From assembly GCA_964577305.1 (NCBI GenBank), contig CAZNYS010000011.1, positions 1,507 through 65,506 of the forward strand: a stretch of 64,000 bases of DNA, read 5' to 3'. This stretch comes from an uncultured Rikenellaceae bacterium. Its GTDB lineage: Bacteria > Bacteroidota > Bacteroidia > Bacteroidales > VadinHA17. Positions 1 through 17,273 of the stretch are shown here, one piece after another. Under the pieces are notes generated by a model. That model did not search any database, was not told where the DNA came from, and saw only the letters and a program-made list of their open reading frames with translations. The position numbers were made by a program, and so were the translations under genes. Positions within the stretch are counted from its first letter, which is position 1. The number at the start of each line of letters is the position of its first letter.

Positions 1-1713
1 CGCGATATGCTCAAATACAGACAATCGGCAAATGCATACCGGCAGGCCATGATTATTGATTCAACTTTTTATATCCCGGCCTGGTTTGGATATGGAGAGG
101 TACAATTCCTGATTGGTAATTATTCTGAAGCAAGAAGTAATTTCATGTTATACCTGGACCTTGGAGGAGAACAAACTATCAATGCAGGAAAAACAAAGAA
201 GTATATCAGGGATTGTGATTTTGCGCTGGAGGCTATATTAAATCCTGTTGATTTCAATCCTGTTAACCTGGGTGAATCAATCAATACGAGTGATGATGAA
301 TACTGGCCGGCTATAACTGCTGATGATAATATGCTACTGTTTACACGGCAAAATTCAGTAAGGAGGCGTAACATGATAGGGAAAGAATACCAGGAAGATT
401 TCTATTACAGTTACAGGGTTGATGGAAACTGGGATGTTGCCAGAAATGCCGGGACTCCTCTGAATACCTCATATAATGAAGGTGCTCCAACATTGGAGGC
501 AGCTGGTAATTATATGTATTTCACAGCTTGCAACCGGGAGGACGGTAAAGGTGGTTGTGACATATACTATTCGGCCAGGACAGACAACGGATGGAAAAAA
601 GGCATAAATTTAGGTGGACCTGTTAATACAGCTCACTGGGAATCACAGCCATCACTCTCTTCTGATGGCTCAAGGCTTTTCTTTGTTAGTAACCGGCCTG
701 GAGGATATGGTGGAATGGATATCTGGGTAAGTAACCTGGTAAAGGATGGAAGATGGTCAGAACCTGTTAATCTTGGAGGTATTGTTAATACTCCGGGAGA
801 TGAAATGTCACCCTTTATACACTTTGATGGTAAGACACTGTATTTTTCATCCAATGGAAGGCCGTGTATGGGAGGTTTTGATATTTTTATGTCGCGATTT
901 AACAAAGAAGACAACACATGGTCAGAGCCTGAAAACCTTGGTTATCCAATAAACACCCAGACCGATGAAATTGGCATGGTAATTAATTCCTCGGGAGAAG
1001 TAGCCTATTTTTCATCTAAAATAAATACCCTTAAAGGCAGGGACCTGTATTATTTTAAAATGCCTGAATCTCTGAGACCTGATCCTGTATCTTATCTTAA
1101 AGGGAAAGTAGTAGATAAGTTGACAGGTAAAAAATTAAAAGCCACTTATGAACTCATTAACCTTAGTACAGGCAAGAGGGTGATTCAATCGTTTACAGAT
1201 TCTAAAGGTGATTTCCTGGTATGTTTGCCCACCGGCCATAATTATGGTATTAATGTGAGCAGTAAAGACTACCTTTTCTATTCGGAGAATTTTATGCTGG
1301 AAGGAGAGCACAGTTCAATAAAACCATTTGAAAAGACTATTTCCCTGAGTCCTATCCAGGTTGGTCAGCAGATGTCGCTTCATAATGTATTTTTTGCTTT
1401 TGACTCATGGGAACTGCGTGATGAATCACTACCCGAACTGGAAAAACTGTTTAGTTTGATCGAAAGCAACCATGGTCTGGTAGTTGAAATCGGGGGACAT
1501 ACTGACTCAACAGGCTCTGATGAACACAATCTTGTTCTTTCGGAGAAACGCGCACGTGTAGTTCGGGATTATCTTATCAACCGTGGTATATCACCTGATC
1601 GCTTGCATTATAAAGGTTATGGTGAAAAAGTGCCACTCTATGATAATGCCAGTGAAGAAGGTAAGCGCAAAAACAGACGCACTGATATACGTATACTGAA
1701 AATTTCGGAATAA
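1..1713 (+). CDS. OmpA-family protein with N-terminal TPR and TolB-like beta-propeller repeats (5' partial; frame is open to the window edge)
   Basis: ORF 7..1713, with the frame open upstream to nt 1. Repeated propeller motifs of the WPxxxxDG / LYFxS type. C-terminal OmpA-like domain: FAFDSWEL...GGHTDSTGSDEHNLVLSEKRARVVRDYL...RRTDIRI. Confidence 0.8.
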   Translation, partial: RDMLKYRQSANAYRQAMIIDSTFYIPAWFGYGEVQFLIGNYSEARSNFMLYLDLGGEQTINAGKTKKYIRDCDFALEAILNPVDFNPVNLGESINTSDDEYWPAITADDNMLLFTRQNSVRRRNMIGKEYQEDFYYSYRVDGNWDVARNAGTPLNTSYNEGAPTLEAAGNYMYFTACNREDGKGGCDIYYSARTDNGWKKGINLGGPVNTAHWESQPSLSSDGSRLFFVSNRPGGYGGMDIWVSNLVKDGRWSEPVNLGGIVNTPGDEMSPFIHFDGKTLYFSSNGRPCMGGFDIFMSRFNKEDNTWSEPENLGYPINTQTDEIGMVINSSGEVAYFSSKINTLKGRDLYYFKMPESLRPDPVSYLKGKVVDKLTGKKLKATYELINLSTGKRVIQSFTDSKGDFLVCLPTGHNYGINVSSKDYLFYSENFMLEGEHSSIKPFEKTISLSPIQVGQQMSLHNVFFAFDSWELRDESLPELEKLFSLIESNHGLVVEIGGHTDSTGSDEHNLVLSEKRARVVRDYLINRGISPDRLHYKGYGEKVPLYDNASEEGKRKNRRTDIRILKISE

Positions 1714-1729
1714 TACAGGTAAAAGAGAA

Positions 1730-1756
1730 AGAGCACCTACTGAAGGTGCTCTTTTA
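1730..1756. terminator. Hairpin between convergent genes, a candidate bidirectional intrinsic terminator
   Basis: AGAGCACC (1730-1737) pairs perfectly with GGTGCTCT (1745-1752) around a 7-nt loop. A T-run follows on the + strand and an A-run precedes it. It lies between the OmpA-family gene and the minus-strand kinase gene. Confidence 0.55.
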
Positions 1757-1806
1757 CCCATTTTGTGGCAGACATATAAAGGTAGGTGAAAGGATTCTAC
1801 TAATTA

Positions 1807-2631
1807 TCAGATTGCGATTCTAGATGAAACAGGTTCAGACTTATCCTTTTTCATAGCATTGTGTTCCGGAACTGAGAAATACATAGCAGTTCCGTTAACA
1901 CCATTAGGTCGTATCCATAATTCACCGTCCATACTCTCAATAAGTTTCTTTGAAAGTATGAATGAAACAGTAGTAAATGTGTTCTGATGTTTACTTAGAT
2001 ATTTTGTAAGGTTATTACAGGTAAGCAGTTCTCGATTCTTAGTGTAACCATTTCCTGAATCGATAACGTAAAATTCAACCCTGTTTTTTTGCTTCCTGTA
2101 GCCCAACTTAATATAACCTGATTCCGTATTTTCCAATGCATTGAAAAAGAGATTTCTTAAAACCCGATTAATCTTCTCTTTATCAATGAACATTGAATCA
2201 TGTCCGGATCTTTCATCAAGCAGGAGTGTAACCTTCTTCTTATCGAACCTGCTGATAGAATTGTCCAAATCATTCAGAATATCTCTGAGTAAAGTCCTGA
2301 GATCGCATCTGATGATAGTTGAACTTGGAACATCGGAATCGATTAAAGCTGAATCAAGAAAATTATCAAATAATGTAATTAACTGGTCGCATGAATTCAT
2401 AATATGATTATTATACTCGCTCCGCTCTTCCTCTGTGCAGTTATCATTATTACTCAGGAAGGTGAATGCTACTATGGAGTTCATGTAGGTTCGGACTTCA
2501 TGAGATAATCCGGTTAGTATGGAAGGAGTATATAGCATATCAGTGTTATGTACAGGATTTATCATTTCTGACTTTTCATTATGACCATGTTGTGATCCCT
2601 TCTCAATATTTTTCCCAAAAGTCATAAACAT
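1807..2631 (-). CDS. Small soluble histidine-kinase-like protein (HisKA + HATPase_c only, with no sensor or TM domain)
   Basis: H-box LSHEVRTYMNSIV. The C-terminal GHKL region contains RNLFFNALENT and YVIDSGNGY. No hydrophobic segments. Confidence 0.65.
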   Translation of the reverse strand: MFMTFGKNIEKGSQHGHNEKSEMINPVHNTDMLYTPSILTGLSHEVRTYMNSIVAFTFLSNNDNCTEEERSEYNNHIMNSCDQLITLFDNFLDSALIDSDVPSSTIIRCDLRTLLRDILNDLDNSISRFDKKKVTLLLDERSGHDSMFIDKEKINRVLRNLFFNALENTESGYIKLGYRKQKNRVEFYVIDSGNGYTKNRELLTCNNLTKYLSKHQNTFTTVSFILSKKLIESMDGELWIRPNGVNGTAMYFSVPEHNAMKKDKSEPVSSRIAI

Positions 2632-2661
2632 CTTCCTTATACTTATATTAATTTTTTCCTG

Positions 2662-3396
2662 TTAGCCAATTTTTCTTAAAAGTTTCCTGGCGTCTTTCTT
2701 ATGCCTGTTTTCAGAGTTTACGACACCCTCAAGCAACTCTTTTGCCTTATCTGCCTGGTCTGTTTGTATATAACAGACACCCAGGTAGAATATGGCATCT
2801 TCAATAAAGAGGTTATCATTATCTTCAACTACCTTGCTGAAGGAACCAATGGCCTCATTATATTGACTAATATGCATGTGGGATGATCCTTTAAGAAATT
2901 CAACCTGCATATCTGCATCAACTATCCTGTTGAACCATCTTATAGCTTCAGTGTAATTGCCTGAATTATAATACTCTGTTGCCCTGGTATAGGCTTCATC
3001 CAGTCCTGCCGATGATGAACGGTATGCAGCCAATGGAGCATATCCAGGTGAGTATTTTGTTGCGATATCCGCAATGTTGTTGTTCCTGATATAGAGACTA
3101 ATGGTCCCGATTAATATCAGGCCCGCAAATACAGCAGCATACTGGATGACCTGTTTTGTGGCAACCTTCCTTTTGGCTACAGTTTTTCTATGCCTGGTTT
3201 CAGCATTCATAAGACTCTGCCTGAAGGCAATAGCATCCTGGTTATCAACATATTTGTTTACCTTTCTGCGCAATTCAAGTTCTTTCTTTAAGCCCGGGTT
3301 ACCCTCAAGCTCTGCTTCGAACCATTCTTTTTCAGCGCTTTGCATATTGCCCTCGAGATATCTTTCGATAAAACGGGTGAATTCAATTTTTTTCAT
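2662..3396 (-). CDS. Anti-sigma-factor-like single-pass membrane protein with an extracytoplasmic TPR domain
   Basis: The N-terminus FIERYLEGNMQSAEKEWFEAELEGNPGLKKELELRRK resembles the Bacteroidota anti-sigma N-terminal helix pattern. One TM segment (VIQYAAVFAGLILIGTISLYI). TPR-like C-terminus (YNSGNYTEAIRWF, AIFYLGVCYIQTDQADKAKELL). Confidence 0.5.
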   Translation of the reverse strand: MKKIEFTRFIERYLEGNMQSAEKEWFEAELEGNPGLKKELELRRKVNKYVDNQDAIAFRQSLMNAETRHRKTVAKRKVATKQVIQYAAVFAGLILIGTISLYIRNNNIADIATKYSPGYAPLAAYRSSSAGLDEAYTRATEYYNSGNYTEAIRWFNRIVDADMQVEFLKGSSHMHISQYNEAIGSFSKVVEDNDNLFIEDAIFYLGVCYIQTDQADKAKELLEGVVNSENRHKKDARKLLRKIG

Positions 3397-3658
3397 AACG
3401 TGTAGTATTTCATTTTCATTTCATTTCGAATTTATTATTCTTCTGTTTATGTTAACTACCACATTATCAAAGTAATGTAGATAGATAAAGTACATTCATC
3501 ATCATTCAGTCATTGCCTGATAGCAATGCATTCAAAAACAGTGGTATATAGTATTTTTACATACTTTAGCCACCCCGGCCCTAATTTATTTAGCCGGTAC
3601 CGTAATACGGTTCTAATATTTTACAGATCGCTGTATTTCTTTTCCTTTGATCTGGCTA

Positions 3659-3793
3659 TTAGATCTCAGGTTCTGTGATAGGGGGAACTGTCATTTGTTT
3701 TTCACCATCACCGCCGCGTACGAGCAGCATTTCTTCGTCTGAAAGTAAAAAGTCGTTGAAATTTTCAAATTTTTCCTGATTTAAAGTTCTCAT
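3659..3793 (-). CDS. Double-glycine (GG) leader peptide precursor, 44 aa (not in the ORF track because it is under 60 aa)
   Basis: Manual reverse-complement translation gives MRTLNQEKFENFNDFLLSDEEMLLVRGG-DGEKQMTVPPITEPEI, then TAA. The leader fits the Bacteroidota GG-leader pattern (LN.EKF..F...LS.EEM....GG). A C39-peptidase ABC exporter and an HlyD gene lie 4 kb away. Confidence 0.7.
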   Translation of the reverse strand: MRTLNQEKFENFNDFLLSDEEMLLVRGGDGEKQMTVPPITEPEI

Positions 3794-4021
3794 CTTAATA
3801 ATTTTTTTGGTTACACTTCTAAATAATCGGGTTTATTATTACGTTACATATATACATGTCACTTTAATGCTTTTTGTGACACGAAAATTTCAACTTTTTT
3901 TTATGACAGTTTATAAAACCCAGATATACAAGAGTGTACATTATATATTTTTTTTGGCTTTTAGCTTTCTTATACTGATATTTGGTGCTTGTGTGGTAAA
4001 TAATTGTAAACATAATAATAA

Positions 4022-7021
4022 ATGCGGATTATTTCCAGATATATATTTATACGGATTATCATTATTCTATGTTTCATTCAGGATTTAGAAGCCCGTCAGT
4101 TTAACAATGTAAACGAGAAAGATTCAGTAATCGTAAACAAGCTCAACAGCTTTAAGACTGCTTTGCAGGAAAGCAGTCCCGATGCAAGCTTATATTATAA
4201 CTGGATTCTGAACTATCTTGGAACCAATGATATTAGCGACAGTATACTTATATCAGATTGTTATTACTATACCGGAACATATAAATACATCGGGAACTCT
4301 TACAATGATGCTATAGAATTATTACAGGAGGCAATCAGGTACAGGATTGCCGTTGACAGCATAGATGATATTTATGCCAGGGCTAGAACAAATCTGGCAC
4401 TTTCGTACATGTATACGGGTAAACCGGAGGAGGCTCGTGTAAACCTCGAAATGGCTCTTAAAACCAGGGAAGGGCTATTTGGAACTGAATCACCAATACT
4501 CCTCAGGACACTGTTGAATCTGTCAGCGATATATATTGACATGAATATGCATGAAAGAGCATTACCAATTTCGCTCAGGGGTGTCCATCTGGCAGAAAAT
4601 CACCCGGAAGATATCGATAAGGGGACCCTTGTGAACTTTTATTATAATTCCGGTGTGTCATATATGAATATTCTGGATTATAACAGAGCAAAAAGAAATT
4701 TTGAAATTGCCTATGACCTTGCGCAGGAAAGTTTGAGTTTAGATCCCGAAAAGCTTTTACTTTTATATAATTCAATCGCCGCATGTAATTATGAGCTTGG
4801 CAATTCCGATTTATCTGACCAATATTTTGGAAAAGCATTGGAGCTGATTGATTCAACTGGTTTTTCAGGAAGATTGGTAAATGCGGTATATGAGAATTAT
4901 GCTTTTTTCCTGGCCGGTATAGGGATGTATGACAAAGCAGAGCATTATTTATTATCATCAGTTGAAGAAGCTGAGAAAGAATACGGGAAAGAGAGCAGGG
5001 ATCATATAATACAGCTTCTGAATTACTCTTACTTCCTGATAAATAATATGGCAAATTACAGCGAAGCGGAAGAAATATTAAAAAAAGTACTGCCATATGT
5101 GAATGAAAATAAGCAAGATAAAAGGGTCAGGAGTGAGGCTTTTCTATATTTTTCCAGGCTGATGTATTATACAGGAAGGAATTCAGAAGCTTTGAGATAT
5201 ATTAATAACATAATTAATGATTCTTCAATAGTGGCTTCAAATATCAGGATTGCTTCTTTTATACATAAAAGTAAAATACTATATACGATATACAGGTCAG
5301 GGAATGATAGTCAGAATCTCAGGGAAGCTTTATCAGCAGTAGAACAAGCTATAGCTATTATAGAGGCTACGAGGCTGAGGATAAACGAGGATGAGAGTCG
5401 TAGCAGGGTGTCTGGCAGATATTTTGACGCTTACGATATAGCAATAGCCATATTGAATGAATTGTACAGCCTTACAAAAGATAAGGAATACATCGAACAG
5501 GCTTTTTCTATTTCAGAAAAATCAAAGGCTGCAGGTTTACTTGTAGCAACCAGGAATAACAGGGCAATGAATTTCCACCTGCCCAATGGTCTTGCCAGCC
5601 TTGAAAGAGAACTGCAGGCTGATATCAGAGATTATAACGAGGTGATATATAATGAATCTGCAAAACAAAAACCGGATAATGATCTTATTGATCGCTATCG
5701 CCATCTAAGCGTCAGGGCAGGTAGTAAGTATGATTCACTTGTACGGATCTTTGAACAGGAGTATCCCCGGTATTATAACCTTAAGTTTAACACGGCGGTG
5801 AGTTCTGCTGATGATATACGAAGAAGGATAGGCAGAAAAGGTAACTTTGTTGAATATTACTTATCAGATAGTCTCTTATATATTTTCCTGATAAACCGTG
5901 AAAGATTTGAGATTGAATCAGTGCCGGCAGGTGATGGTTTGCTTGAGATGATCCTTGATTTCAGAAATATTCTCACCAATCCGTCAATAGTCAATGAGTC
6001 CTGGACACAATACCTGGAATATGTTGAGCTCGCCTTAGAATTATATAAAAGACTGTTACTCCCGGTGAGGGATTACTTTATCTCAGAAAGGCTCATTATT
6101 TCTGCAGATGATATACTTTCATATATTCCTTTTGAAACACTGATAAGCGAAATCCCTGAATATAATGAAATAAATTACCGTGAGTTAGCCTATATGATGA
6201 GAGAATATGAGATAATCTATGAATACTCCGGTACCATATTATCAGAAACATTATCATCACACCGTAGCATAAATAATAAAGTATTGAGCTTTGCGCCGGA
6301 ATATACAGGGAGTATCGATATTGAAGAACTTATGATGAGCAGGCAGTTTGATCGTGACAATCTGACCAATATCCCCGGTGCCAGGGAAGAAGCAATATAT
6401 ATCAATAAATTGCTTGGTGGGAAACTATATATCGATGACCAGGCAACTGAAAGCATATTCAAATCAAATGTAATTGAAGGCGATATAATACACCTGGCCA
6501 TGCACACACTGTTGAACGATAATGAACCCATGTATTCGAAAATGATCTTTAACATGGAAGCCGACACAGTTGAAGATGGTATGCTTAATACCTTTGAGGT
6601 TTACAATATACCCGTTAAATCAAAGATGATGTTTCTAAGTGCCTGTAATACCGGAAGTGGTTACCTGCAATCTGGTGAGGGAGTAATGAGTTTGGCCAGG
6701 GGATTCTTCTATTCAGGAAGCCCGTGTGTAATAATGTCTTTATGGGAAGTGGATGACCGTTCGGGAAACGATATTGTAAAAGATTTCTATTCTAATCTAA
6801 AAATGGGCTTCTCAAAAAGTAAGTCACTTAAAAAAGCAAGAACTAAGTACCTTACAGATGCTGATCAGATGAGGTCGCATCCTTACTTCTGGAGTACCCT
6901 GGTGATAATGGGTAATGATGACTCTGTATATTTCCCTTTTAAAAGGTACCTCCTCATAGCAGTCCTTATCATCATCCTTTATTTTCTTGCAAGGTATTAC
7001 TACAGGTTAAAATCGGTGTAA
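4022..7021 (+). CDS. TPR-repeat CHAT-domain (caspase-like) protease with an N-terminal signal/anchor and a C-terminal TM helix
   Basis: Hydrophobic N-terminus MRIISRYIFIRIIIILCFIQDLEA. About 600 aa of TPR-like repeats. CHAT His/Cys dyad context: IIHLAMHTLL and MMFLSACNTGSG. C-terminal TM segment YLLIAVLIIILYFLARYYY. Confidence 0.8.
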   Translation: MRIISRYIFIRIIIILCFIQDLEARQFNNVNEKDSVIVNKLNSFKTALQESSPDASLYYNWILNYLGTNDISDSILISDCYYYTGTYKYIGNSYNDAIELLQEAIRYRIAVDSIDDIYARARTNLALSYMYTGKPEEARVNLEMALKTREGLFGTESPILLRTLLNLSAIYIDMNMHERALPISLRGVHLAENHPEDIDKGTLVNFYYNSGVSYMNILDYNRAKRNFEIAYDLAQESLSLDPEKLLLLYNSIAACNYELGNSDLSDQYFGKALELIDSTGFSGRLVNAVYENYAFFLAGIGMYDKAEHYLLSSVEEAEKEYGKESRDHIIQLLNYSYFLINNMANYSEAEEILKKVLPYVNENKQDKRVRSEAFLYFSRLMYYTGRNSEALRYINNIINDSSIVASNIRIASFIHKSKILYTIYRSGNDSQNLREALSAVEQAIAIIEATRLRINEDESRSRVSGRYFDAYDIAIAILNELYSLTKDKEYIEQAFSISEKSKAAGLLVATRNNRAMNFHLPNGLASLERELQADIRDYNEVIYNESAKQKPDNDLIDRYRHLSVRAGSKYDSLVRIFEQEYPRYYNLKFNTAVSSADDIRRRIGRKGNFVEYYLSDSLLYIFLINRERFEIESVPAGDGLLEMILDFRNILTNPSIVNESWTQYLEYVELALELYKRLLLPVRDYFISERLIISADDILSYIPFETLISEIPEYNEINYRELAYMMREYEIIYEYSGTILSETLSSHRSINNKVLSFAPEYTGSIDIEELMMSRQFDRDNLTNIPGAREEAIYINKLLGGKLYIDDQATESIFKSNVIEGDIIHLAMHTLLNDNEPMYSKMIFNMEADTVEDGMLNTFEVYNIPVKSKMMFLSACNTGSGYLQSGEGVMSLARGFFYSGSPCVIMSLWEVDDRSGNDIVKDFYSNLKMGFSKSKSLKKARTKYLTDADQMRSHPYFWSTLVIMGNDDSVYFPFKRYLLIAVLIIILYFLARYYYRLKSV

Positions 7022-7566
7022 TCACTGAATTCAGGGTCAGCTTTCACTATTTTAATCAGTGCTTCTTTACATAGATATTTTTTTCGGCGAGCGTAATCTG
7101 CTGATTTATAATTCATTTCACGGGCAATATGGCTATAATCATGACCTTTGATAACCATATTAAGCACTTCCTGGCATTCCGGTTTCAGTTTCAGGAAAGA
7201 CCGCTGTACTATTTGTTCCAACGGAGTGTCAAGCAAATTCGAAGGATCAAAATCATCAACCAGTTCTTTATCCATCTCAACATTTTTCCTCTTCTTCCTG
7301 AGATGCTCGTGCCATAAATTCTTGGAAACACCAAAGACATATCCCTTAACATCGGTATTTTCTTCAAGGTTGTTAAGTTGTATCTTCTTGAAAAGTACCA
7401 TCAGGGCATCCTGGAATATATCATATGCATCATCTTCCGTACCTGTATTCTTCAGTACATATGATTTTATGGTATCGAAAAATGAGTCATAGAGGTAGTT
7501 AACTGATTTATCGTCCCCCTTTCGTATTCCCTCTATTAATTTTGTATCTGAGTGTTTATTTAACAC
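7000..7566 (-). CDS. ECF-type sigma-70 family RNA polymerase sigma factor
   Basis: 188 aa. Region 2 (DAYDIFQDALMVLFKK ... GYVFGVSKNLWHEHLRKKRK) and region 4 HTH (CQEVLNMVIKGHDYSHIAREMNYKSADYARRKKYLC). Apparent GTG start. The 3' end overlaps the CHAT gene by 22 nt. Confidence 0.8.
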   Translation of the reverse strand: MLNKHSDTKLIEGIRKGDDKSVNYLYDSFFDTIKSYVLKNTGTEDDAYDIFQDALMVLFKKIQLNNLEENTDVKGYVFGVSKNLWHEHLRKKRKNVEMDKELVDDFDPSNLLDTPLEQIVQRSFLKLKPECQEVLNMVIKGHDYSHIAREMNYKSADYARRKKYLCKEALIKIVKADPEFSDYTDFNL

Positions 7567-7703
7567 TTCATAATAGTATTTGAGGCAAATATAGTATTTC
7601 CAAATAATTAACTCAATGATTTAAGACTAATAAGCAGTTGTAACAGTATGTTTGAATAGAATCAAATAATAGATATATTTACAGACTTTAACTATTGTTC
7701 GGT

Positions 7704-9890
7704 ATGTCATTTCCTTTCGAAAGGCAAGCAGATGCTATGGATTGTGGTCCTACCTGTCTTCAGATGGTTGCCCGTTTCTATGGTAAGAAGTTCAGCCTCC
7801 CTGATTTGAGGGGCAAGAGTTATATTACCAGGGAGGGAGTTTCTTTCCTGGGTATATCCGAAGCAGCAGAATCAGTTGGATTCAGGACTATTGGTGTTCG
7901 TATACCTTTTGCCAAGCTTGCTGAAGAGACTCCATTACCCTGTATTGTGCACTGGAGGCAAAAACATTTTGTTGTAGTACATAAGATTAAGAAAGACAGC
8001 GTGCATGTTGCCGATCCTGCAAGGGGACTGGTGAAATATTCCAGGGAAGAATTTGAGAAAAACTGGGCTATGACAACGATCGATGAGGAAAAGGTGGGTC
8101 TGGTACTGATACTTCAACCCACTCCTGAATTCTATGAGCAGGAAGAGGCAAAAGAGGGGAAATCAGGATTCAGCTTTCTTCTACGTTATATTAAGATGTA
8201 CAGGAAGTATTTCTTCCAGATCTTTCTTGGATTATTCATAGGTAGTCTTATACAGCTGATCTTTCCGTTTCTGACACAGTCGGTTATCGATATCGGTATA
8301 AATACCAATGACCTTGGATTTATTTACCTTATACTTTTTGCACAACTTGCCCTGGTTTTAGGGAGAATGACCGTTGAATTTGTTCGTGGATGGCTGTTAC
8401 TGCATATCAGTACCAGGGTTAACGTGGCCATTGTTTCAGGCTTTCTTTACAAACTGATGGCTTTGCCAGTATCATATTTCGATACCAAGTTAAGTGGTGA
8501 CCTGTTACAGAGAATTGAAGATAACCAGCGGATAGAGTCATTTCTCAGTAACACCTCATTAAGTGTGCTGTTCTCGTTTGTTAACCTCCTGGTTTTCGGT
8601 ATTGTCCTGGCTATATATAATTCAACCATACTGCTTATCTTCCTTGCCGGCACTACTTTTTACATTGCCTGGGTATCCGTTTTTATGCGGTCGCGTGCTC
8701 AGCTTGATCATAAGAGGTTTAAACAGCTGTCTGACAATAATGCCAAACTGATTGATATAATCACCGGTATGCAGGAGATTAAGCTTACTCAAAGTGAAAC
8801 AAGTAAAAGATGGGATTGGGAGAATGTCCAGGCATCACTGTTCAAAACAAGAGTAAAGGCAATGAGTCTTTCACAATACCAGCTTGCAGGTGGAAGATTG
8901 ATAAATGAAGCATCCAATGTGCTTATTACTATTATCGCGGCTGCTGCAGTATTATCAGGGAGCATGACACTTGGTATGATGCTGGCCGTACAGTTTATTA
9001 TCGGCCAGTTAAATATCCCGGTGAACCAGATGGTTGTGTTTTTCAGGACAGCACAGGATGCAAGAATGAGCCTTGACAGGCTTTCTGAAATACAATCCAG
9101 TCAGCCTGAAGAGTTGGAGGATGAAATGAAAGTAAAAAACCTGCCGGCAAACAAGAATATCTATATAAATAACCTATCATTCCAGTATGAAGGGCCACGT
9201 TCACCATTTGTCCTGAAAGATATCGATATAGTAATACCTGAGAAGAAGATCACTGCCGTGGTTGGTACCAGCGGCAGCGGAAAGACAACAATGCTAAAAC
9301 TTATGCTTGGATTCTATAACCCTGTTGAAGGAGATATACTGGTTGGCGACACAAACCTCAGGAATCTCAGTCTCAAAGTATGGAGACAAAAGATAGGTGT
9401 AGTGATGCAGGACGGTTATATTTTTCCTGATACCATAGCTAATAATATTGCTCCCGGCATTGATGTAATTGACAGTGATAAATTATTAAAATCAATCTCA
9501 ATTGCTAATATGAACGATTTTGTTGATACTTTGCCATTGGGCATAAATACAAGGATAGGACATAACGGTCATGGATTGAGCCAGGGACAGAAACAACGAA
9601 TATTGATAGCCAGGGCAGTATATAAAAATCCTGATTACCTGTTTTTTGATGAGGCCACAAACTCACTTGATGCCGCCAATGAAAAGAAGATAGTTACAAA
9701 TCTTAATGAATTTTTCTCAGGCAAGACAGTGTTGATAATTGCTCACAGGCTAAGTACGGTGCGTAATTCTGATAATATTGTGGTTATCGATAAAGGCCGG
9801 ATGATAGAAAGTGGCACTCATCCTGAACTGATAAGCAGGAAAGGCATATATTACAACCTGGTACGTGACCAGTTGGAGCTTGGTAACTGA
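7704..9890 (+). CDS. C39 peptidase domain-containing ABC exporter (bacteriocin/GG-peptide processing and export type)
   Basis: C39 catalytic Cys in DAMDCGPTCLQM and His in IVHWRQKHFVVVH. Six-TM exporter core. Walker A GTSGSGKTT, signature LSQGQKQR, Walker B LFFDEATNSLD. ATG at 7704 preferred over the TTG at 7695 used by the track. Confidence 0.9.
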   Translation: MSFPFERQADAMDCGPTCLQMVARFYGKKFSLPDLRGKSYITREGVSFLGISEAAESVGFRTIGVRIPFAKLAEETPLPCIVHWRQKHFVVVHKIKKDSVHVADPARGLVKYSREEFEKNWAMTTIDEEKVGLVLILQPTPEFYEQEEAKEGKSGFSFLLRYIKMYRKYFFQIFLGLFIGSLIQLIFPFLTQSVIDIGINTNDLGFIYLILFAQLALVLGRMTVEFVRGWLLLHISTRVNVAIVSGFLYKLMALPVSYFDTKLSGDLLQRIEDNQRIESFLSNTSLSVLFSFVNLLVFGIVLAIYNSTILLIFLAGTTFYIAWVSVFMRSRAQLDHKRFKQLSDNNAKLIDIITGMQEIKLTQSETSKRWDWENVQASLFKTRVKAMSLSQYQLAGGRLINEASNVLITIIAAAAVLSGSMTLGMMLAVQFIIGQLNIPVNQMVVFFRTAQDARMSLDRLSEIQSSQPEELEDEMKVKNLPANKNIYINNLSFQYEGPRSPFVLKDIDIVIPEKKITAVVGTSGSGKTTMLKLMLGFYNPVEGDILVGDTNLRNLSLKVWRQKIGVVMQDGYIFPDTIANNIAPGIDVIDSDKLLKSISIANMNDFVDTLPLGINTRIGHNGHGLSQGQKQRILIARAVYKNPDYLFFDEATNSLDAANEKKIVTNLNEFFSGKTVLIIAHRLSTVRNSDNIVVIDKGRMIESGTHPELISRKGIYYNLVRDQLELGN

Positions 9891-9896
9891 TTAATT

Positions 9897-11210
9897 ATGA
9901 CGAAACAGTCACATGAAATAAGATATTCCCGACCCGTGGAGGATATAATGAACACCCCTCCCAGGTCTATGGTTCGATGGGGCACTGCAATAGCGACAAT
10001 AGTAATAATATTGCTTCTGTTCCTTTCCTGGATTATAAAATACCCTTATATAATAAGGGCTGAAGCCGTAATAACAACAGAAAAGCCGCCGGCAAATATA
10101 GTTGCAAGGGTATCAGGTAATATAGAACATCTCTTTGTAAGCGACGGAGAAAAGATTTCATCAGGATCAATCCTTGGAGTAATGGAAACTACCGCTACTT
10201 ACGAGAGTATACAGTGGTTGAGTTCATTGCTCGATACGGTGAAAACAGAAGACATGTCATCTGCAAATGAAAAAGTGATCCGGAAATTACCGAATAACCC
10301 TGTTCTGGGTGAGATACAGGATCAGTATTCAACCTTCAGGAAAAACTACTATGACTATATAAACCATATAGAAATTGACTATTACGGGAAAAAAATAGAG
10401 GCTGTTAATGAGGAAATAAAGAGTATCGAAGACTATATCAGGCAGCTCAAAAGCAAAGAGGCCCTGACAGCCTCTAACCTTGAGGTAGAGAAAAAGAAAT
10501 ACCTGAGAGATTCACTACTGAACGAGCAGAACATTTTACCTGATGCTGAACTGGAAAATTCAAAGCAGAAATTTTATTCCTTAAAGATCGAACTGGTTCA
10601 GGTTGTACTGGAAGCTTCATCAAGACGTATTGACCTTGCATCTAAAAAGCAGGAGTTGCAGGATTTGACTGCTGCCCGCGAAGAAGAAAGACAAAGGTAT
10701 ATTTCCGCCGTTGACGATGAGCTTATGAAACTTAAAGCAAGACTCGAATGGTGGATACAGGATTACCTGCTCGTTTCACCCATTGACGGAAATGTGACTT
10801 TTACGAGGTACTGGTCAGAAAATCAGTCTGTAAGGGAAGGAGAAACAGTAATGACGGTTGTGCCCCAGGGCGAAAGTGAAATATTTGCCCGTATTATGAT
10901 CCCGATGGCAGGCTCCGGGACAGTGAAAGAAGGGCAGAATGTTAACATACAGCTGGAAGGATATCCTTACCTTGAATATGGAATGGTTCAGGGTATAATA
11001 GAATCACGTTCACTGGTCCCACAAGAAGATCTATATGTCCTCGATGTTAGTTTACCCGACGGCTTATCAACATTTTATGGAAAGCAACTCGATTTCAGCC
11101 AGAATATGTCAGGAAGGGCTGAAATTATAACCGAGGATATGAGGTTGATCGAGAGACTGATATATCCTTTTAAATACCTTGTCGAAAAGAACAGGAGAGC
11201 GGGCAATTAA
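9897..11210 (+). CDS. HlyD-family membrane fusion / secretion adaptor protein
   Basis: Single N-terminal TM (WGTAIATIVIILLLFLSWII), a long coiled-coil middle and a beta-rich C-terminus. It starts 6 nt after the ABC exporter gene. Confidence 0.8.
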   Translation: MTKQSHEIRYSRPVEDIMNTPPRSMVRWGTAIATIVIILLLFLSWIIKYPYIIRAEAVITTEKPPANIVARVSGNIEHLFVSDGEKISSGSILGVMETTATYESIQWLSSLLDTVKTEDMSSANEKVIRKLPNNPVLGEIQDQYSTFRKNYYDYINHIEIDYYGKKIEAVNEEIKSIEDYIRQLKSKEALTASNLEVEKKKYLRDSLLNEQNILPDAELENSKQKFYSLKIELVQVVLEASSRRIDLASKKQELQDLTAAREEERQRYISAVDDELMKLKARLEWWIQDYLLVSPIDGNVTFTRYWSENQSVREGETVMTVVPQGESEIFARIMIPMAGSGTVKEGQNVNIQLEGYPYLEYGMVQGIIESRSLVPQEDLYVLDVSLPDGLSTFYGKQLDFSQNMSGRAEIITEDMRLIERLIYPFKYLVEKNRRAGN

Positions 11211-11432
11211 TAATCAGTCGGCATTTTAATACAAAAAATTTAGATTTTTAGCATTCTGTCATCTTCGGCAATAGATATGACCAGTGTTTAAGTTGTTGTG
11301 TAACAGTGATAAAATATAAAAACTCTTATTCTTTGAGTTTTTCTAAATAATTCGATATTTTCGTAACCTTGATTGGTCTCAGATTTAAGTAATTAATAAA
11401 TCTGCAAATGTGCTCAAATAAAAGGATTAGTT

Positions 11433-13529
11433 ATGACTGTTATAAATCCGGATGATTCTGTTCGTGATGAACAATTCGATGCAGAAAATGAATCTGCCGA
11501 AACTAATAGTGAAACCAACAAAGCTGAAACAAAAGCTGAATCAAAAGAAGAAGGATCTACCACCAATGGTGAGGATTTGAAATCCGAACCTGATAAAGAG
11601 GCTTCCGTCTCCGCCATGGCTGCGGAGGATAAGAAGGTTAAGGGAAAAGAAGAAGAATCTACTAATGGTGAAGATTCAAAATCCGAACCTGATAAAAAGC
11701 AAAAAGCTGAGGAGAAAGAGGAGGCTAAGGCAGATGACATTTCAGAGGATAGTGAAGATTCGTCAGGAAAGGGAACTGAGGAAGAACCTGACGAATTGCC
11801 GGAGGTTGACTATACGGGGAGATCTAAGGTTGAGCTCACGGAAACTCTTGAATTACTTATTGAAAACAGGCCGCTGAATGAGATAGTCGATGATGTTGAC
11901 AAGATAAAAACCATATTCTATAAAAAGCATAAGGCAGAACTCGATAAAAAGAAGAAAAAATTCCTGGAAGAAGGAGGGAGAATTGAAGATTATCAGCCTG
12001 CCGATGATCCGTTGGAGCTTAAAATAAAAAACCTTCTTGCCCGCTTCAGGGGTAAGAAAACTGAATACAACAAACAGCTCGAAGTTGAGAAACAGGAAAA
12101 CCTCAGGAAAAAGTATGATATAATTGATAAGATAAAAGACCTGGTTAACAGGGAAGAATCAATTAATAAAACATTCCAGGAATTCAGGGATTTGCAGGCC
12201 CAGTGGCACTCAACAGGCATAGTGCCTCAGTCTTCGCTCAGGAACCTTTGGGAAACCTATAACCTGAATGTTGAAATTTTCTATGATTATATTAAGATTA
12301 ACAAGGAACTGAGGGACCTGGACTTAAAAAAGAACCTGGAAAGCAAAATTAAGCTGTGCGAAAAAACGGAAGAACTTTTATTGGACCCCAATGCTGTGAA
12401 TGCTTTCAGAGCTCTTCAGGAATACCACCAGCAATGGAGAGAAATAGGGCCGGTTCCAAGAGAGTCAAGGACAGAATTGTGGGATAGATTCAAGGCTGCT
12501 ACTTCAAATATAAATAAGAGACATCACGAATATTTTGAAAAGCAGAAGGACGAACAAAAAAAGAATTTGGAAGCCAAAACGGCATTATGCGAAAAAGTAG
12601 AGGAAATAAATAATCTTAAATTAAAAACCTTCAAAGATTGGGAAAGTAAAGCCAAAGAGGTAATTGAAATACAAAAAGTTTGGCGTACTATAGGCTTTGC
12701 TCCCAAAAGACATAATAACAGCATTTACCAGAGATTCAGAGAAGGCTGTGATGCTTTCTTCCAGGCAAAAAGAGAATTCTATGCCGAAAACAGAGAACAG
12801 CAGTTGGCTAACCTTCAGAAAAAAACTGAATTATGCATGCAGGCAGAAACATGGAAGGACAGCACTGAATGGAAAGAAGCAACTGATGCCCTGATAAACT
12901 TGCAGAAAGAATGGAAGGAGATAGGTACTGTTCCCAGAAAACACTCGGATAAAATATGGCGACGATTTAGAAAAGCCTGTGATCGCTTTTTTGAAAGAAA
13001 ATCAGAACATTTTACTGAACTGGACAGCTCCTTTGAAGATAATCTTAAAGAAAAAGAAAAGCTTATAGACGAACTTGAAAATTTCGATCCGGGGGACGAT
13101 ATTAATGAGGCTTTTGAAAAACTTAAGGAGATTCAAAGAAAATGGACTGAAGTAGGTTTTGTACCATATAAAGATAAGGATAAAATAGGAAACCGGTACA
13201 GGAATGCCCTGAATGAACAATTCGACAGGCTGAAAATAGATGAGGACGAGAAAGCTATTCTTAAATTTCAGACAAAGCTGGAGAATATCAAGGAAACGCC
13301 AAAAGCAACAAGAAAACTAAGGGGAGAGAGAGAAAAATTCATAAACAGGATTAAACAACTTGAGAATGACATTGTTGTGTGGGAAAATAATATTGGCTTC
13401 TTTTCAAAATCAAGCAATGCAGAGTCGATGATCCAGGAAGTGCAGTCAAAAATTGACAACGCGAAGAAAACAATAGAAGTGCTTGAAGAAAAAATAAAGC
13501 TGATTGACCAGTCGGGAATTGATAATTAA
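11433..13529 (+). CDS. DUF349 repeat protein with an acidic low-complexity N-terminus
   Basis: Multiple DUF349-type repeats of about 75 aa (W..IG.VP......LW.RF......F..). The N-terminal 120 aa are E/K/D/S-rich. Confidence 0.7.
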   Translation: MTVINPDDSVRDEQFDAENESAETNSETNKAETKAESKEEGSTTNGEDLKSEPDKEASVSAMAAEDKKVKGKEEESTNGEDSKSEPDKKQKAEEKEEAKADDISEDSEDSSGKGTEEEPDELPEVDYTGRSKVELTETLELLIENRPLNEIVDDVDKIKTIFYKKHKAELDKKKKKFLEEGGRIEDYQPADDPLELKIKNLLARFRGKKTEYNKQLEVEKQENLRKKYDIIDKIKDLVNREESINKTFQEFRDLQAQWHSTGIVPQSSLRNLWETYNLNVEIFYDYIKINKELRDLDLKKNLESKIKLCEKTEELLLDPNAVNAFRALQEYHQQWREIGPVPRESRTELWDRFKAATSNINKRHHEYFEKQKDEQKKNLEAKTALCEKVEEINNLKLKTFKDWESKAKEVIEIQKVWRTIGFAPKRHNNSIYQRFREGCDAFFQAKREFYAENREQQLANLQKKTELCMQAETWKDSTEWKEATDALINLQKEWKEIGTVPRKHSDKIWRRFRKACDRFFERKSEHFTELDSSFEDNLKEKEKLIDELENFDPGDDINEAFEKLKEIQRKWTEVGFVPYKDKDKIGNRYRNALNEQFDRLKIDEDEKAILKFQTKLENIKETPKATRKLRGEREKFINRIKQLENDIVVWENNIGFFSKSSNAESMIQEVQSKIDNAKKTIEVLEEKIKLIDQSGIDN

Positions 13530-13543
13530 TATACTCTTTGTAA

Positions 13544-15178
<1,635 letters not shown>

Positions 15179-15204
15179 TATAAAATTAATTACACGTGGA
15201 TTAA

Positions 15205-17190
15205 ATGGACAGAAATACATTAATCGGATTGGTACTAATGGTCCTTGTTTTTATAGGATTCGGCTTCTATAACAGCAATAAGCTAAAAAAATCATACGAA
15301 TCAGCTTTTATCGAAGCCGATTCATTATACAAGGAAGGTGAATATGAAGCAGCAAAGCTCAAATACCTTAAAGCGCTGGAATTTAAGCCCGGTACCCCTG
15401 AAGCTGTTAACAGGATCAATGAAATCAACAGGATTATTCAGCCGGATACAATAGTAGGTATACAGGATACTGTACAACAACGGGAGCAGGTTCCACAACA
15501 GGAAGTGAAGACCGTAGGCGGGGCTGCAGAAACAGAACAACCCATGCAGCCGACAGGCGCTTTTTCTGAAACCTATAATGGTAAACAGGAGTTCTTTATA
15601 CTTAAGAATGATATACTGGAAGTAACAATAGCAACTAAAGGAGGGCGTATCTATTCAGCCTTGCTGAAAGATTATACTACTTATGATCAACGCCCACTGG
15701 TACTTTTTGACGGTGACTCTACTAATTTTGGCTTTAAGTTCTTTACAAGTGATAATAAGCGTATCGAAACGAATAATCTGTACTTTAAACCTGTAAATAC
15801 ATCTCAGGTTACTGATGCTACCAACTCAAAAGCCAGTGCCACATTCAGGTTGGAAGTGTCTGAAAATGAATATATAGAATATGTCTATAGCCTTGAACCA
15901 GACCGTTATATGGTCGATTTTGATGTCAATTTCTTAGGCTTATCAGATATCATGCCTTCAAATATGAACTCTATTTCATTTGACTGGAAATCGTATATTC
16001 CACAACAGGAGAAGGGAAGACAGAATGAGAATAACTGGGCTAATATCAAATACAAACATTATCAGGATAATGTAGATGGCTTCAGGGACAGAGTGCATAA
16101 AGATTTTGAGGAAGCCGACATAACAACCCCATTAAGGTGGGTGGCGTTCAAGGACCAATTCTTTTCATCAGTATTAATCTCAAGTGGAAGTTTTACCAAT
16201 GCTTATGTGTCGTATACAACCATGCCTGAGGACAGCAAATACCTGAGGTATTGTACCGCCGAGCTTGGACTTCCATTTAATCCCGGTGATAAGGTTGAGT
16301 ATGATTTGAAACTCTATTTAGGGCCAAATCATTATAATACTCTTAAAAAATATGATGTTGGACTGGAAGAACTTGTAATGCTGGGTAAAAACGTCATCAA
16401 GTTTTTTAATAAATATGTTATAGTACCTATTTTCAATTGGCTGGATAATTACATAGGGAATTACGGAATAATAATACTGATCCTTACACTGATAATAAAA
16501 ATTGTGCTTTTCCCTCTTACTTTTAAGTCATTCCAGTCGCAGGCCAAGATGAAAGTTTTGAAACCAATGGTTGATGAGATAGGCAAAAAGTATCCTAAGA
16601 AAGATGATGCTATGAAAAAGCAGCAGGCTACAATGGACCTTTATAAGAAGGCCGGTGTAAGCCCGCTTGGAGGATGTCTGCCTATGGCACTGCAGATGCC
16701 CATACTGTTCGCTATGTTCAGGTTTTTCCCAACATCAATAGAATTGAGACAGCAGCCATTCCTTTGGGCGGAGGATCTGTCAACATATGACTCTATACTG
16801 GACCTTCCATTCAATATACCTATGTATGGTGATCATATAAGCCTGTTTACTCTTCTTATGACAGCATCCACAATTATTACTATGAAGATAAACAGCCCGT
16901 CATCAACGGGGCAGGAGCAGATGCCGGGTATGAAAATGATGACTTATATAATGCCTATTATGTTCATGCTTATATTGAATAACTTTTCAGCCGGTTTGAC
17001 ATATTATTATTTCCTGGCCAACCTGATAACATTTGGGCAGAATTTGATTTCCAAAAGGTTTATCGATGAAGAAGCTGTGCTGAAAAGACTTAACGAGAGC
17101 AAGAAAAAGCCATCTAAAAAATCAAAATTCCAACAGCGGCTTGAAGCAGCAGCAAAACAAAGAGGATATCAGCCGCCAAAAAGGAAATAG
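15205..17190 (+). CDS. yidC: Membrane protein insertase YidC
   Basis: N-terminal TM, large periplasmic domain, conserved C-terminal core (GGCLPMALQMPILFAMF, AGLTYYYFLANL) and a basic tail. Sits directly downstream of pyrG. Confidence 0.9.
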   Translation: MDRNTLIGLVLMVLVFIGFGFYNSNKLKKSYESAFIEADSLYKEGEYEAAKLKYLKALEFKPGTPEAVNRINEINRIIQPDTIVGIQDTVQQREQVPQQEVKTVGGAAETEQPMQPTGAFSETYNGKQEFFILKNDILEVTIATKGGRIYSALLKDYTTYDQRPLVLFDGDSTNFGFKFFTSDNKRIETNNLYFKPVNTSQVTDATNSKASATFRLEVSENEYIEYVYSLEPDRYMVDFDVNFLGLSDIMPSNMNSISFDWKSYIPQQEKGRQNENNWANIKYKHYQDNVDGFRDRVHKDFEEADITTPLRWVAFKDQFFSSVLISSGSFTNAYVSYTTMPEDSKYLRYCTAELGLPFNPGDKVEYDLKLYLGPNHYNTLKKYDVGLEELVMLGKNVIKFFNKYVIVPIFNWLDNYIGNYGIIILILTLIIKIVLFPLTFKSFQSQAKMKVLKPMVDEIGKKYPKKDDAMKKQQATMDLYKKAGVSPLGGCLPMALQMPILFAMFRFFPTSIELRQQPFLWAEDLSTYDSILDLPFNIPMYGDHISLFTLLMTASTIITMKINSPSSTGQEQMPGMKMMTYIMPIMFMLILNNFSAGLTYYYFLANLITFGQNLISKRFIDEEAVLKRLNESKKKPSKKSKFQQRLEAAAKQRGYQPPKRK

Positions 17191-17273
17191 CCTATAAAAA
17201 TATTGCATAAGTAGTAAACATTAATAGTGAGAAATATATTATATACAGCAGCTGACAATAAAAGCATTCTTAA

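Follow-up and report, generated by a model that had tools for sequence, protein, structure and literature searches.

In the Sigma-E/RseA/DegS/RseP system, DegS, once bound by a free peptide C-terminus, cuts the periplasmic domain of RseA, and intramembrane cleavage then releases the extracytoplasmic function (ECF) sigma factor. Cell-cell signalling by peptides is well known in Firmicutes; to our knowledge, an established counterpart is lacking in Bacteroidota, a dominant phylum in guts, sediments and oceans, and the field is essentially uncharted there. Here, a locus of seven genes was analysed in a 64-kb stretch of contig CAZNYS010000011.1 from an uncultured Rikenellaceae bacterium (hereafter the window). 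The genes encode a short peptide with a double-glycine (GG) leader, a C39-peptidase ABC exporter with its HlyD adaptor, a TPR-CHAT protease, a sigma factor, an anti-sigma-like TPR protein and a kinase-like protein. The locus is a real, conserved and apparently undescribed module of Bacteroidota, in which the exported peptide, the membrane anti-sigma factor, the periplasmic caspase-like protease and the sigma factor are probably wired into a signalling loop that induces itself and may activate genes for bacteriocins and toxins.

The closest described system is DdvS/DdvA of Myxococcus xanthus, an ECF sigma factor and a transmembrane anti-sigma factor with a periplasmic TPR-CHAT region (PMC11506125). 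The likeness to the window lies in an ECF sigma factor held by a single-pass anti-sigma factor and in a periplasmic TPR-CHAT region with a His-Cys dyad, the proposed site-1 protease ahead of RseP, and DdvA is among the best structural matches of the window CHAT model. However, DdvA combines anti-sigma and TPR-CHAT parts in one polypeptide with a zinc-binding CHCC cytoplasmic domain, whereas the window encodes two proteins, a TPR anti-sigma factor of 244 aa that has no Cys/His zinc ligands and a TPR-CHAT protein of 999 aa with a membrane anchor of its own. DdvA also lacks a linked peptide and exporter, responds to an unknown signal and has CBASS and CRISPR as its regulon, and DdvA-like proteins were limited, by its authors' search, to Myxococcota and one Comamonas species (PMC11506125). 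A TPR-CHAT protease is likewise genetically tied to an ECF-type sigma factor and a cleaved protein in Craspase, where the type III-E effector Cas7-11 occurs with the TPR-CHAT protein Csx29, Csx30, Csx31 and RpoE (PMC10028731); Craspase, however, is a cytoplasmic system that RNA activates via the CRISPR effector, and membrane, peptide and exporter components are absent from it.

With E. coli DegS/RseA the locus shares, by analogy only, the logic of a periplasmic site-1 protease activated by a peptide C-terminus. DegS is a PDZ serine protease sensing the C-termini of misfolded porins, a stress signal, whereas the window encodes a caspase-like protease with TPR repeats, whose candidate ligand would be a dedicated, self-produced, sigma-induced peptide. 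The ComC/ComAB/ComDE, BlpC/BlpAB/BlpHR and plantaricin A systems of Firmicutes resemble the locus in the short GG-leader peptide, the C39-ABC exporter and peptide autoinduction, as well as in an apparent regulon with bacteriocin clusters carrying their own GG peptides. Their readout, in contrast, consists of a membrane histidine kinase and a LytTR response regulator instead of an anti-sigma factor, a CHAT protease and an ECF sigma factor, and the host here is Gram-negative with a periplasm. Induction peptides of Firmicutes are typically cationic or hydrophobic, whereas cores of the window type are acidic and proline-rich. Bacteroidetocin cores are about 40 aa long, class IIa-like and contain a disulfide; the window peptide differs in its 16-aa acidic, Cys-free core and in its linkage to regulators, not to immunity or oxidoreductase genes. 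It shares with bacteroidetocins (PMC6671954) the phylum, the GG leader and the C39-ABC exporter, and clusters of 5-TM, thiol oxidoreductase and C39-ABC genes lie downstream of the promoter motif of the window clade in metagenome contigs.

Full-text literature searches returned neither a description of the module nor a periplasmic TPR-CHAT protein other than DdvA, and PADLOC and NCBIfam contain no model for the module. The first-pass annotation, made from the window sequence, had known of no described system of this composition; indeed no such module was found, but DdvA/DdvS is a partial precedent. The module joins two known kinds of system, ECF/anti-sigma regulated proteolysis and GG-peptide autoinduction.

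Layout and conservation of the locus

An open reading frame (ORF) listing together with Pfam and NCBIfam scans confirmed all seven genes (7/7) at the coordinates, and with the domains, that the first-pass annotation had given them. The features of the locus are as follows.

1728-1754, minus strand: terminator-like hairpin closing the peptide/anti-sigma/kinase-like operon; 11-bp stem and T-rich tail just past the kinase-like stop codon
1807-2631, minus strand: kinase-like protein with HisKA and HATPase_c, 274 aa; transmembrane (TM) and sensor domains absent (Pfam/NCBIfam)
2662-3396, minus strand: single-pass anti-sigma-like TPR protein, 244 aa; basic stretch, TM helix at about residues 83-103, C-terminal TPR domain
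3659-3793, minus strand: GG-leader precursor peptide, 44 aa; leader MRTLNQEKFENFNDFLLSDEEMLLVRGG (residues 1-28) followed by the predicted 16-aa core DGEKQMTVPPITEPEI
3853-3881, minus strand: promoter motif of the ECF type, TGTCACAAA-N12-GACATGTA, 59 nt before the ATG of the peptide gene
4022-7021, plus strand: TPR-CHAT caspase-like protease, 999 aa (PF12770, E=1e-47)
7000-7566, minus strand: divergent ECF-type sigma factor, 188 aa (Sigma70_r2 above cutoff)
7586-7593, minus strand: -7 box of the Bacteroidetes housekeeping type, TATATTTG, before the sigma gene, matching TAnnTTTG (alignment)
7674-7681, plus strand: housekeeping-type -7-like box TATATTTA upstream of the ABC gene, in a block ATAT.TTTAC conserved in the alignment
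7704-9890, plus strand: C39-peptidase ABC exporter of the peptidase-containing ABC transporter (PCAT) type (Peptidase_C39 E=5e-37, ABC_membrane, ABC_tran)
9897-11210, plus strand: HlyD-family periplasmic adaptor (Pfam/NCBIfam)

The flanks of the locus in the window are housekeeping genes, namely a PorE-like OmpA/PD40 protein, DUF349, CTP synthase and YidC, and no immunity-like, modification or oxidoreductase genes were found in the locus by Pfam and NCBIfam scans.

One genome per GTDB species was scanned with a CHAT alignment, yielding at least 583 relatives, of which the best 80 loci (designated by L numbers) were analysed; linkage was counted over the 49 species-level loci in which the CHAT gene is flanked on either side by 2.5 kb or more. 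As a result, the sigma gene and the gene for the single-pass TPR protein each stood beside the TPR-CHAT gene in 48 of the 49 loci, and a short GG-leader peptide did so in at least 45. The kinase-like gene, C39-ABC and HlyD were present in 34, 32 and 24 of them, respectively. The analysis of neighbourhood conservation that the first-pass annotation had proposed was positive.

Loci with CHAT homologues at 33-68% identity carried all seven genes, yet also the flanks of the window. The common housekeeping flanks of the first four relatives had suggested simple lineage synteny, which was rejected once loci proved to differ in arrangement and surroundings: at least five gene orders occurred among the CHAT loci, in unrelated genomic contexts. 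The housekeeping flanks are absent from L046, L051, L052 and L075, in which the genes for the peptide, the TPR protein (the kinase-like protein and one or two stand-alone LytTR proteins), ABC and HlyD form, in this order, a minus-strand operon divergent from CHAT; the sigma gene there is convergent to CHAT, and in L046 and L051 a second TPR paralogue accompanies it. Further orders were sigma-TPR-CHAT, CHAT-sigma and sigma-TPR convergent with CHAT, and among more distant relatives the Psychroserpens locus had only sigma, TPR and CHAT, while others had a divergent arrangement or CHAT by itself. Because the same gene set recurs in dozens of species in varied orders and contexts, the association goes far beyond chance, and the linkage is functional, beyond synteny. 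Since the sigma, TPR and peptide genes are near-universal, while the kinase-like, ABC and HlyD genes occur in only part of the 49 loci and the order changes, the conserved core consists of the peptide, the TPR anti-sigma factor, the TPR-CHAT protease and the sigma factor, with the exporter pair and the kinase-like protein as accessories. The composite of seven genes in the first-pass annotation is thus retained as far as all seven are linked, but only four of them make up the core.

Carriers of the module included Bacteroidales metagenome-assembled genomes (MAGs), Prolixibacteraceae, Lentimicrobiaceae and one Cytophagales MAG, and among the cultured carriers were Labilibaculum manganireducens, Ancylomarina longa, Sunxiuqinia dokdonensis and Mangrovibacterium.

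Several features of individual loci were also recorded. The CHAT and sigma 3' ends overlap convergently by 22 bp (window 7000-7021), and the same overlap is annotated in L001 (12985-13006), L003 and one JGI contig; it could cause transcriptional interference or antisense effects between both genes. A 626-aa homologue of thiol-activated (cholesterol-dependent) cytolysins (PF01289) is encoded between the sigma/TPR pair and CHAT in L006, a Bacteroidota metagenome contig (3819-5699), and a gene for a 23S rRNA intervening-sequence or bAvd-like protein is inserted between ABC and HlyD in L051 (3538-3912). An acyl-ACP thioesterase gene right after HlyD in L046 (2667-3389) and L051 (1088-1819), with products 59% identical, either closes the operon or belongs to a conserved flank.

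Peptide, protease and anti-sigma-like protein

The leader of the peptide (...LLSDEEMLLVRGG) follows the hydrophobic/acidic GG pattern L..EE[LM]..[IV].GG, which recurs in more than 50 homologous loci, and GG-leader peptides directly adjoin CHAT even where an exporter nearby is absent. Among 55 cores, the median length was 16 aa (range 10-29); the net charge was negative in 46 and positive in 2, a PP motif was present in 40, D or E came first in 26, and none had two or more Cys. The window core, of 16 aa, net acidic and without Cys, belongs to this picture. Cores were conserved inside clades and different between clades, with clade-specific C-termini such as PPITEPEI, PPIKI, PPVIIEI, IPIIITE or acidic tails. 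The TPR grooves of Hop bind an EEVD C-terminus, and by analogy the properties of the cores would fit an extended ligand with a free C-terminus, as bound by such grooves. The core properties suit neither a class II bacteriocin nor a bacteroidetocin (PMC6671954). Peptides of those kinds would be expected to have cores of about 30-60 aa, cationic or amphipathic and often with a disulfide, and to be encoded beside immunity or thiol-oxidoreductase genes; the window core is short, acidic and Cys-free, and such genes are absent from the locus. No peptide was detected in distant CHAT/sigma/TPR loci such as L005 of Psychroserpens.

In the exporter, the C39 protease motifs Q...DCG...C, H and D are readable in the translation (DCGPTC, HFVVVH, ADP), and an alternative TTG start lies at 7695. 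By analogy with its family, the C39-ABC protein is predicted to cut the leader after GG and to export the core, and its gene is co-operonic with the peptide gene in L046, L051 and L075. HlyD was kept in 24 of the 32 loci with ABC. It is absent from a whole clade with cores ending in PPVIIEI/L/F (the 'PPVIIEI' clade; L022-L025, L028, L030, L032, L047 and L062), where ABC is followed directly by DUF349 and the peptide, the TPR protein, the kinase-like protein, CHAT, the sigma factor and ABC are all retained. Loss of HlyD with all else kept fits a periplasmic site of peptide action. Both CHAT and ABC look fragmented in L062, as pseudogenes or assembly errors.

The protein encoded at 4022-7021 has the hallmarks of a TPR-CHAT protease, a His-Cys dyad and a TPR superhelix before the CHAT domain. 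H824, H828 and C875 were invariant in 17 sequences spanning 20-81% identity. The AlphaFold2 (AF2) model, with a mean predicted local distance difference test (pLDDT) score of 84, placed a caspase-like alpha/beta domain after a TPR solenoid of 25 helices, and its best Foldseek matches were Csx29 (8eey_B, top), DdvA (8rot, 8rw5) and separases, with E-values of 1e-10 to 1e-13. A signal-like helix stands at the N-terminus of the protein and a TM anchor at its C-terminus; from these, together with the positive-inside rule, the bulk of it is predicted to be periplasmic, and periplasmic sensor domains are predicted for both the CHAT and the TPR protein.

In the TPR protein, a conserved N-terminal cytoplasmic three-helix domain and a basic stretch precede the TM helix, after which come a juxtamembrane Y..Y......RS motif and a periplasmic domain of three TPRs; within the RS motif, R and S are each at least 85% conserved (59 sequences). 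This topology is compatible with a class I anti-sigma factor, where a helical anti-sigma domain in the cytoplasm and a single TM helix precede an extracytoplasmic sensor domain. A Foldseek search with the AF2 model of residues 1-110 (pLDDT 76) returned cytoplasmic domains of RsiW, RslA, MucA and RseA as 10 of the top 11 matches, which weakly suggests an anti-sigma-like fold for the N-terminus of the model. No Pfam or NCBIfam anti-sigma model matched the protein, no Cys/His zinc ligands occur in its residues 1-80, and a sequence-profile search of the PDB returned generic TPR proteins only. Public annotations of the family read 'TPR protein', 'CDC27 family' or 'TolA-binding' only. In many loci the TPR gene directly follows the sigma gene in the same orientation.

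Sigma relatives from five of six other loci passed TIGR02937 with 57-72 bits, and that of L052 scored 38.8. The NCBIfam 'GFO_1088/PG0214' sigma model gave 28-45 bits against a cutoff of 130, and none of the curated NCBIfam families fitted the peptide, the TPR protein, CHAT or the sigma factor. The CHAT-associated group ECF54 was rejected as the group of the sigma factor, being actinobacterial and without an anti-sigma factor.

The kinase-like protein retains an H-box, SHExRTxMN, that is at least 90% conserved over 41 loci. Across the window clade the G2 box of its ATP lid is degenerate, and L044, L046 and L051 have lost G1. In L046, L051 and L075 the kinase-like gene shares an operon with the TPR and ABC genes and stands between them. 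The first-pass annotation had described it as a sensor-less kinase; it does lack a TM or sensor domain, but it is a co-transcribed member of the module, not a stray orphan. A crude tblastn search of the 64-kb window with CheY and AgrA found no receiver or LytTR domain (best E=0.4), in line with the earlier report of no response regulator in the window. Stand-alone LytTR proteins are encoded directly after the kinase-like gene in the peptide operons of L044 (7092-7454), L046 (7025-7853) and L051 (6742-7098); receiver domains are absent from them, and no phosphotransfer partner for the conserved His of the kinase-like protein was apparent.

Promoters and candidate regulon

The motif TGTCACAAA-N12-GACATGTA upstream of the peptide gene is a single site in the window and lies inside the intergenic region 3794-4021, which the first-pass annotation had picked out as a divergent promoter region. 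Its TGTCAC...GACA framework was exact in 32 of 34 loci of the window clade, while the surrounding sequence drifts. In other clades the peptide gene is preceded by GGGT(T/A)ACCTTTT-N9-10-GGAATAAA, with an ECF-like -35 element of the 'AAC plus T-tract' type. This second motif also occurs before the sigma gene, at a distance of about 30-45 nt in L041, L052, L064, L076, L077, L081 and L086, and its class precedes that gene at less well-defined distances in L048, L078, L080 and L082; six loci with a site upstream of the sigma gene have the motif before the peptide gene as well. In at least seven loci it precedes an operon of the sigma and then the TPR gene, so that a co-encoded anti-sigma factor is combined with an AAC-type -35 element, the pattern of an autoregulated promoter. 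Autoregulation is a hallmark of ECF sigma factors, and the presence of the motif before the sigma factor's own gene ties the peptide promoter to the locus sigma factor in those clades. From these sequence patterns, we infer that the window promoter at 3853-3881 is also read by the locus sigma factor.

The sigma, ABC and CHAT genes carry TAnnTTTG-like boxes instead, and a conserved block G.CAAATATA..ATTTCC surrounds the -7 box of the sigma gene in the alignment. TAnnTTTG is the consensus of Bacteroidetes sigma-A promoters, and the sigma, CHAT and ABC/HlyD genes look constitutively expressed from housekeeping-type promoters. In a generic promoter/terminator scan, the sigma-70 matches did not rise above shuffled background, and only the hairpin after the kinase-like gene was of use; given this hairpin, the peptide, TPR and kinase-like genes look like one operon. 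The gap between the peptide and TPR genes (3397-3658) is long, at 262 nt, and poorly conserved between clades save for a hairpin right after the peptide stop, which is found in many loci and may be a partial terminator giving an excess of peptide transcript. An Rfam scan of window positions 1-17500, with E up to 1, gave no match.

An exact-match scan of metagenome contigs for the window-clade motif returned at least 120 stretches, 80 of which were examined as loci. About 43 of the 80 contigs, among the matches listed, carried a homologous, pheromone-like GG peptide 40-70 nt downstream of the motif. The non-peptide matches reported here are those likewise situated in A/T-rich upstream DNA. In L103, L104 and L124/L125 the motif precedes genes for HTH_11, a 5-TM protein, a thioredoxin-like protein and C39-ABC, which is the gene set of bacteroidetocin clusters (PMC6671954). 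In L152, L160 and L087 it stands before HlyD and C39-ABC, behind which lie class-II-like GG peptides whose hydrophobic cores measure about 40 aa, and in L094 before a stand-alone LytTR gene, a LanC-like gene and glycosyltransferases. A secreted protein of the Peptidase_S74 tail-fibre-like type, a 150-aa Por_Secre_tail protein and a giant SpvB/FG-GAP/RHS toxin are found downstream in L095, L093, L099/L155 and L137/L153, and further matches precede a lipoprotein, DUF4249 and a TonB-dependent receptor.

Four contigs (L089, L096, L133 and L166) encode a 114-aa protein (MASISETGHAKNV...) about 90 nt downstream of the motif, of which the L096 copy has no Pfam match; L159 has the same promoter region, and the 114-aa ORF was not found there. 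L041, from Labilibaculum manganireducens, has a third copy of the motif of its own clade, which stands before the gene for a 65-aa HTH protein in a cluster (10954-12942); this also encodes a Cys-containing GG peptide (core IHDRDASPDDHCLCNGNDIDGCIKSADA) and a protein of 408 aa that bears a CxxxCxxC motif of the radical-SAM type. Judging from its gene content, this looks like a cluster for a ribosomally made, post-translationally modified peptide (RiPP) that may belong to the sigma factor's regulon.

Proposed circuit and competing explanations

The best explanation of the locus, held with middling confidence, is a self-inducing peptide/ECF-sigma signalling module. Its wiring is well supported, while peptide sensing and cleavage are inferred; the conserved module, the promoter architecture, the retained catalytic residues and the folds are as described above. 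In the proposed circuit, the C39 domain would, as family knowledge suggests, cut the 44-aa precursor after GG, and the 16-aa acidic, proline-rich core would cross the inner membrane. In the periplasm, the core could be bound by the TPR domain of the anti-sigma factor or by that of the membrane-anchored TPR-CHAT protein. Binding would let CHAT cut the periplasmic part of the anti-sigma factor as a site-1 protease, with the juxtamembrane RS motif as a candidate site, and intramembrane proteolysis would then free the sigma factor, by analogy with DegS/RseA and the DdvA model. The sigma factor would transcribe the peptide/anti-sigma/kinase-like operon from 3853-3881, giving positive feedback through the peptide and negative feedback through the anti-sigma factor. 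Elsewhere in the genome it would probably drive bacteriocin-like and RiPP-like clusters and Rhs toxin operons, as the metagenome motif matches suggest. The readout of a GG peptide through an ECF/anti-sigma pair and a CHAT protease, as envisaged in the first-pass annotation, is supported by the promoter, by the motif before the sigma gene in other clades, by the anti-sigma-like fold and by the predicted periplasmic domains. A bolder version, advanced only tentatively and with the balance leaning against it, is that this is the first peptide pheromone of Bacteroidota, for quorum or kin sensing: a GG peptide read by TPRs would activate CHAT, the anti-sigma factor would be cut, and the ECF sigma factor would amplify the peptide together with bacteriocin, RiPP and Rhs loci, with the module present in hundreds of Bacteroidales, Marinilabiliales and related species.

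Several observations weigh against such a loop. Many loci have no adjacent exporter, and HlyD with an outer-membrane channel would release the peptide, which at about 1.7 kDa would need a route back to the periplasm. Binding of the core to TPRs and cleavage of the anti-sigma factor by CHAT are suggested by analogy. The structural matches of the anti-sigma domain, at a root-mean-square deviation of 1.1-2.7 A, have weak E-values of 0.7-9, and the window sigma factor scores 40.7 bits with TIGR02937, just under the 42.9 cutoff, with only Sigma70_r2 passing in Pfam. In the window clade, the sigma gene has no special motif and is not autoregulated, and the anti-sigma factor is co-induced with the peptide; the link between motif and sigma factor there relies on homology with other clades, and another sigma factor could read the motif. 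The metagenome contigs with the motif are not assignable to module-bearing genomes, and about ten matches look like chance, so that the link to antagonism genes is only suggestive. Finally, the model accounts neither for the kinase-like protein, whose phospho-acceptor His is conserved, nor for the stand-alone LytTR proteins.

In one alternative, the peptide is an output, not a signal. The sigma/anti-sigma/CHAT trio would then sense something else, for instance envelope damage, a competitor or phage protein or another ligand, and the peptide would be the most tightly linked member of the regulon; it might be an effector that is secreted, a peptide with a chaperone-like or adhesion-modulating role, or a bacteriocin of an unusual kind. 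The arrow from promoter to peptide is the only firmly supported one, the signal of DdvA, the closest system, is external and unknown (PMC11506125), the other regulon candidates are secreted toxins, and distant loci such as L005 have no detectable peptide. This explanation is nevertheless considered unlikely: the peptide gene stays beside the sensor genes even without a nearby exporter and is co-transcribed with the anti-sigma gene, the locus has no immunity or modification genes, and the cores (10-29 aa, acidic, proline-rich, no Cys pairs) are unlike Bacteroidota GG toxins or class II bacteriocins (PMC6671954). Distinctly less credible is a peptide that acts in the producer's own envelope as a CHAT substrate, pseudosubstrate, securin-like inhibitor or secretion checkpoint, and as neither intercellular signal nor quorum sensor. 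Pheromone circuits are classically built around a dedicated exported peptide under positive autoregulation, most window-clade loci keep HlyD (24 of 32 with ABC) and the peptide bears no mark of a protease substrate, even though periplasmic delivery seems enough for the HlyD-less clade, the CHAT fold is the fold of separase, which securin holds inactive, and an acidic segment comes right after the GG site, with D or E as the first residue in 26 of 55 cores.

Signalling of the ComCDE or Agr type, with the kinase-like protein as the receptor of a two-component-like or LytTR quorum-sensing system and the sigma factor and CHAT as unrelated neighbours, has very little to recommend it. Its hallmarks are missing: the kinase-like protein is predicted to be cytoplasmic, with no TM or sensor domain, its ATP-binding boxes are degenerate or lost in several clades, and a receiver domain was found neither in the window, by the crude search, nor in the LytTR proteins. 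Its gene also occurs in 34 of 49 loci, against 48 each for the sigma factor and the TPR protein. What speaks for such a receptor is the presence of HisKA and HATPase, the conserved phospho-acceptor His and the LytTR proteins that follow the gene in L044, L046 and L051. Scarcely any credence is given to regulation of anti-phage defence in the manner in which DdvA/DdvS controls CBASS and CRISPR. CHAT proteases and ECF/anti-sigma pairs do recur in defence islands (PMC11506125, PMC10028731), and the fold resembles Csx29 and DdvA, but PADLOC matched no component save for generic ABC ATPase similarity, the flanks are housekeeping genes, and the motif is linked to bacteriocin and Rhs loci as targets instead of defence systems.

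Thanks to the promoter motif and the short peptides, the hypothesis of a self-inducing peptide/ECF-sigma module is open to direct tests in the cultured carriers. If it is true, Bacteroidota would possess a widespread pheromone system with a type of receptor that is new for any pheromone, and a dedicated peptide activating a caspase-like site-1 protease would be a new signal input to ECF sigma/anti-sigma pairs. The module would further supply a natural ligand and a substrate for a bacterial TPR-CHAT protease, which is the gap for DdvA, and it would offer a regulatory handle on the production of bacteriocins and Rhs toxins in Bacteroidota communities.

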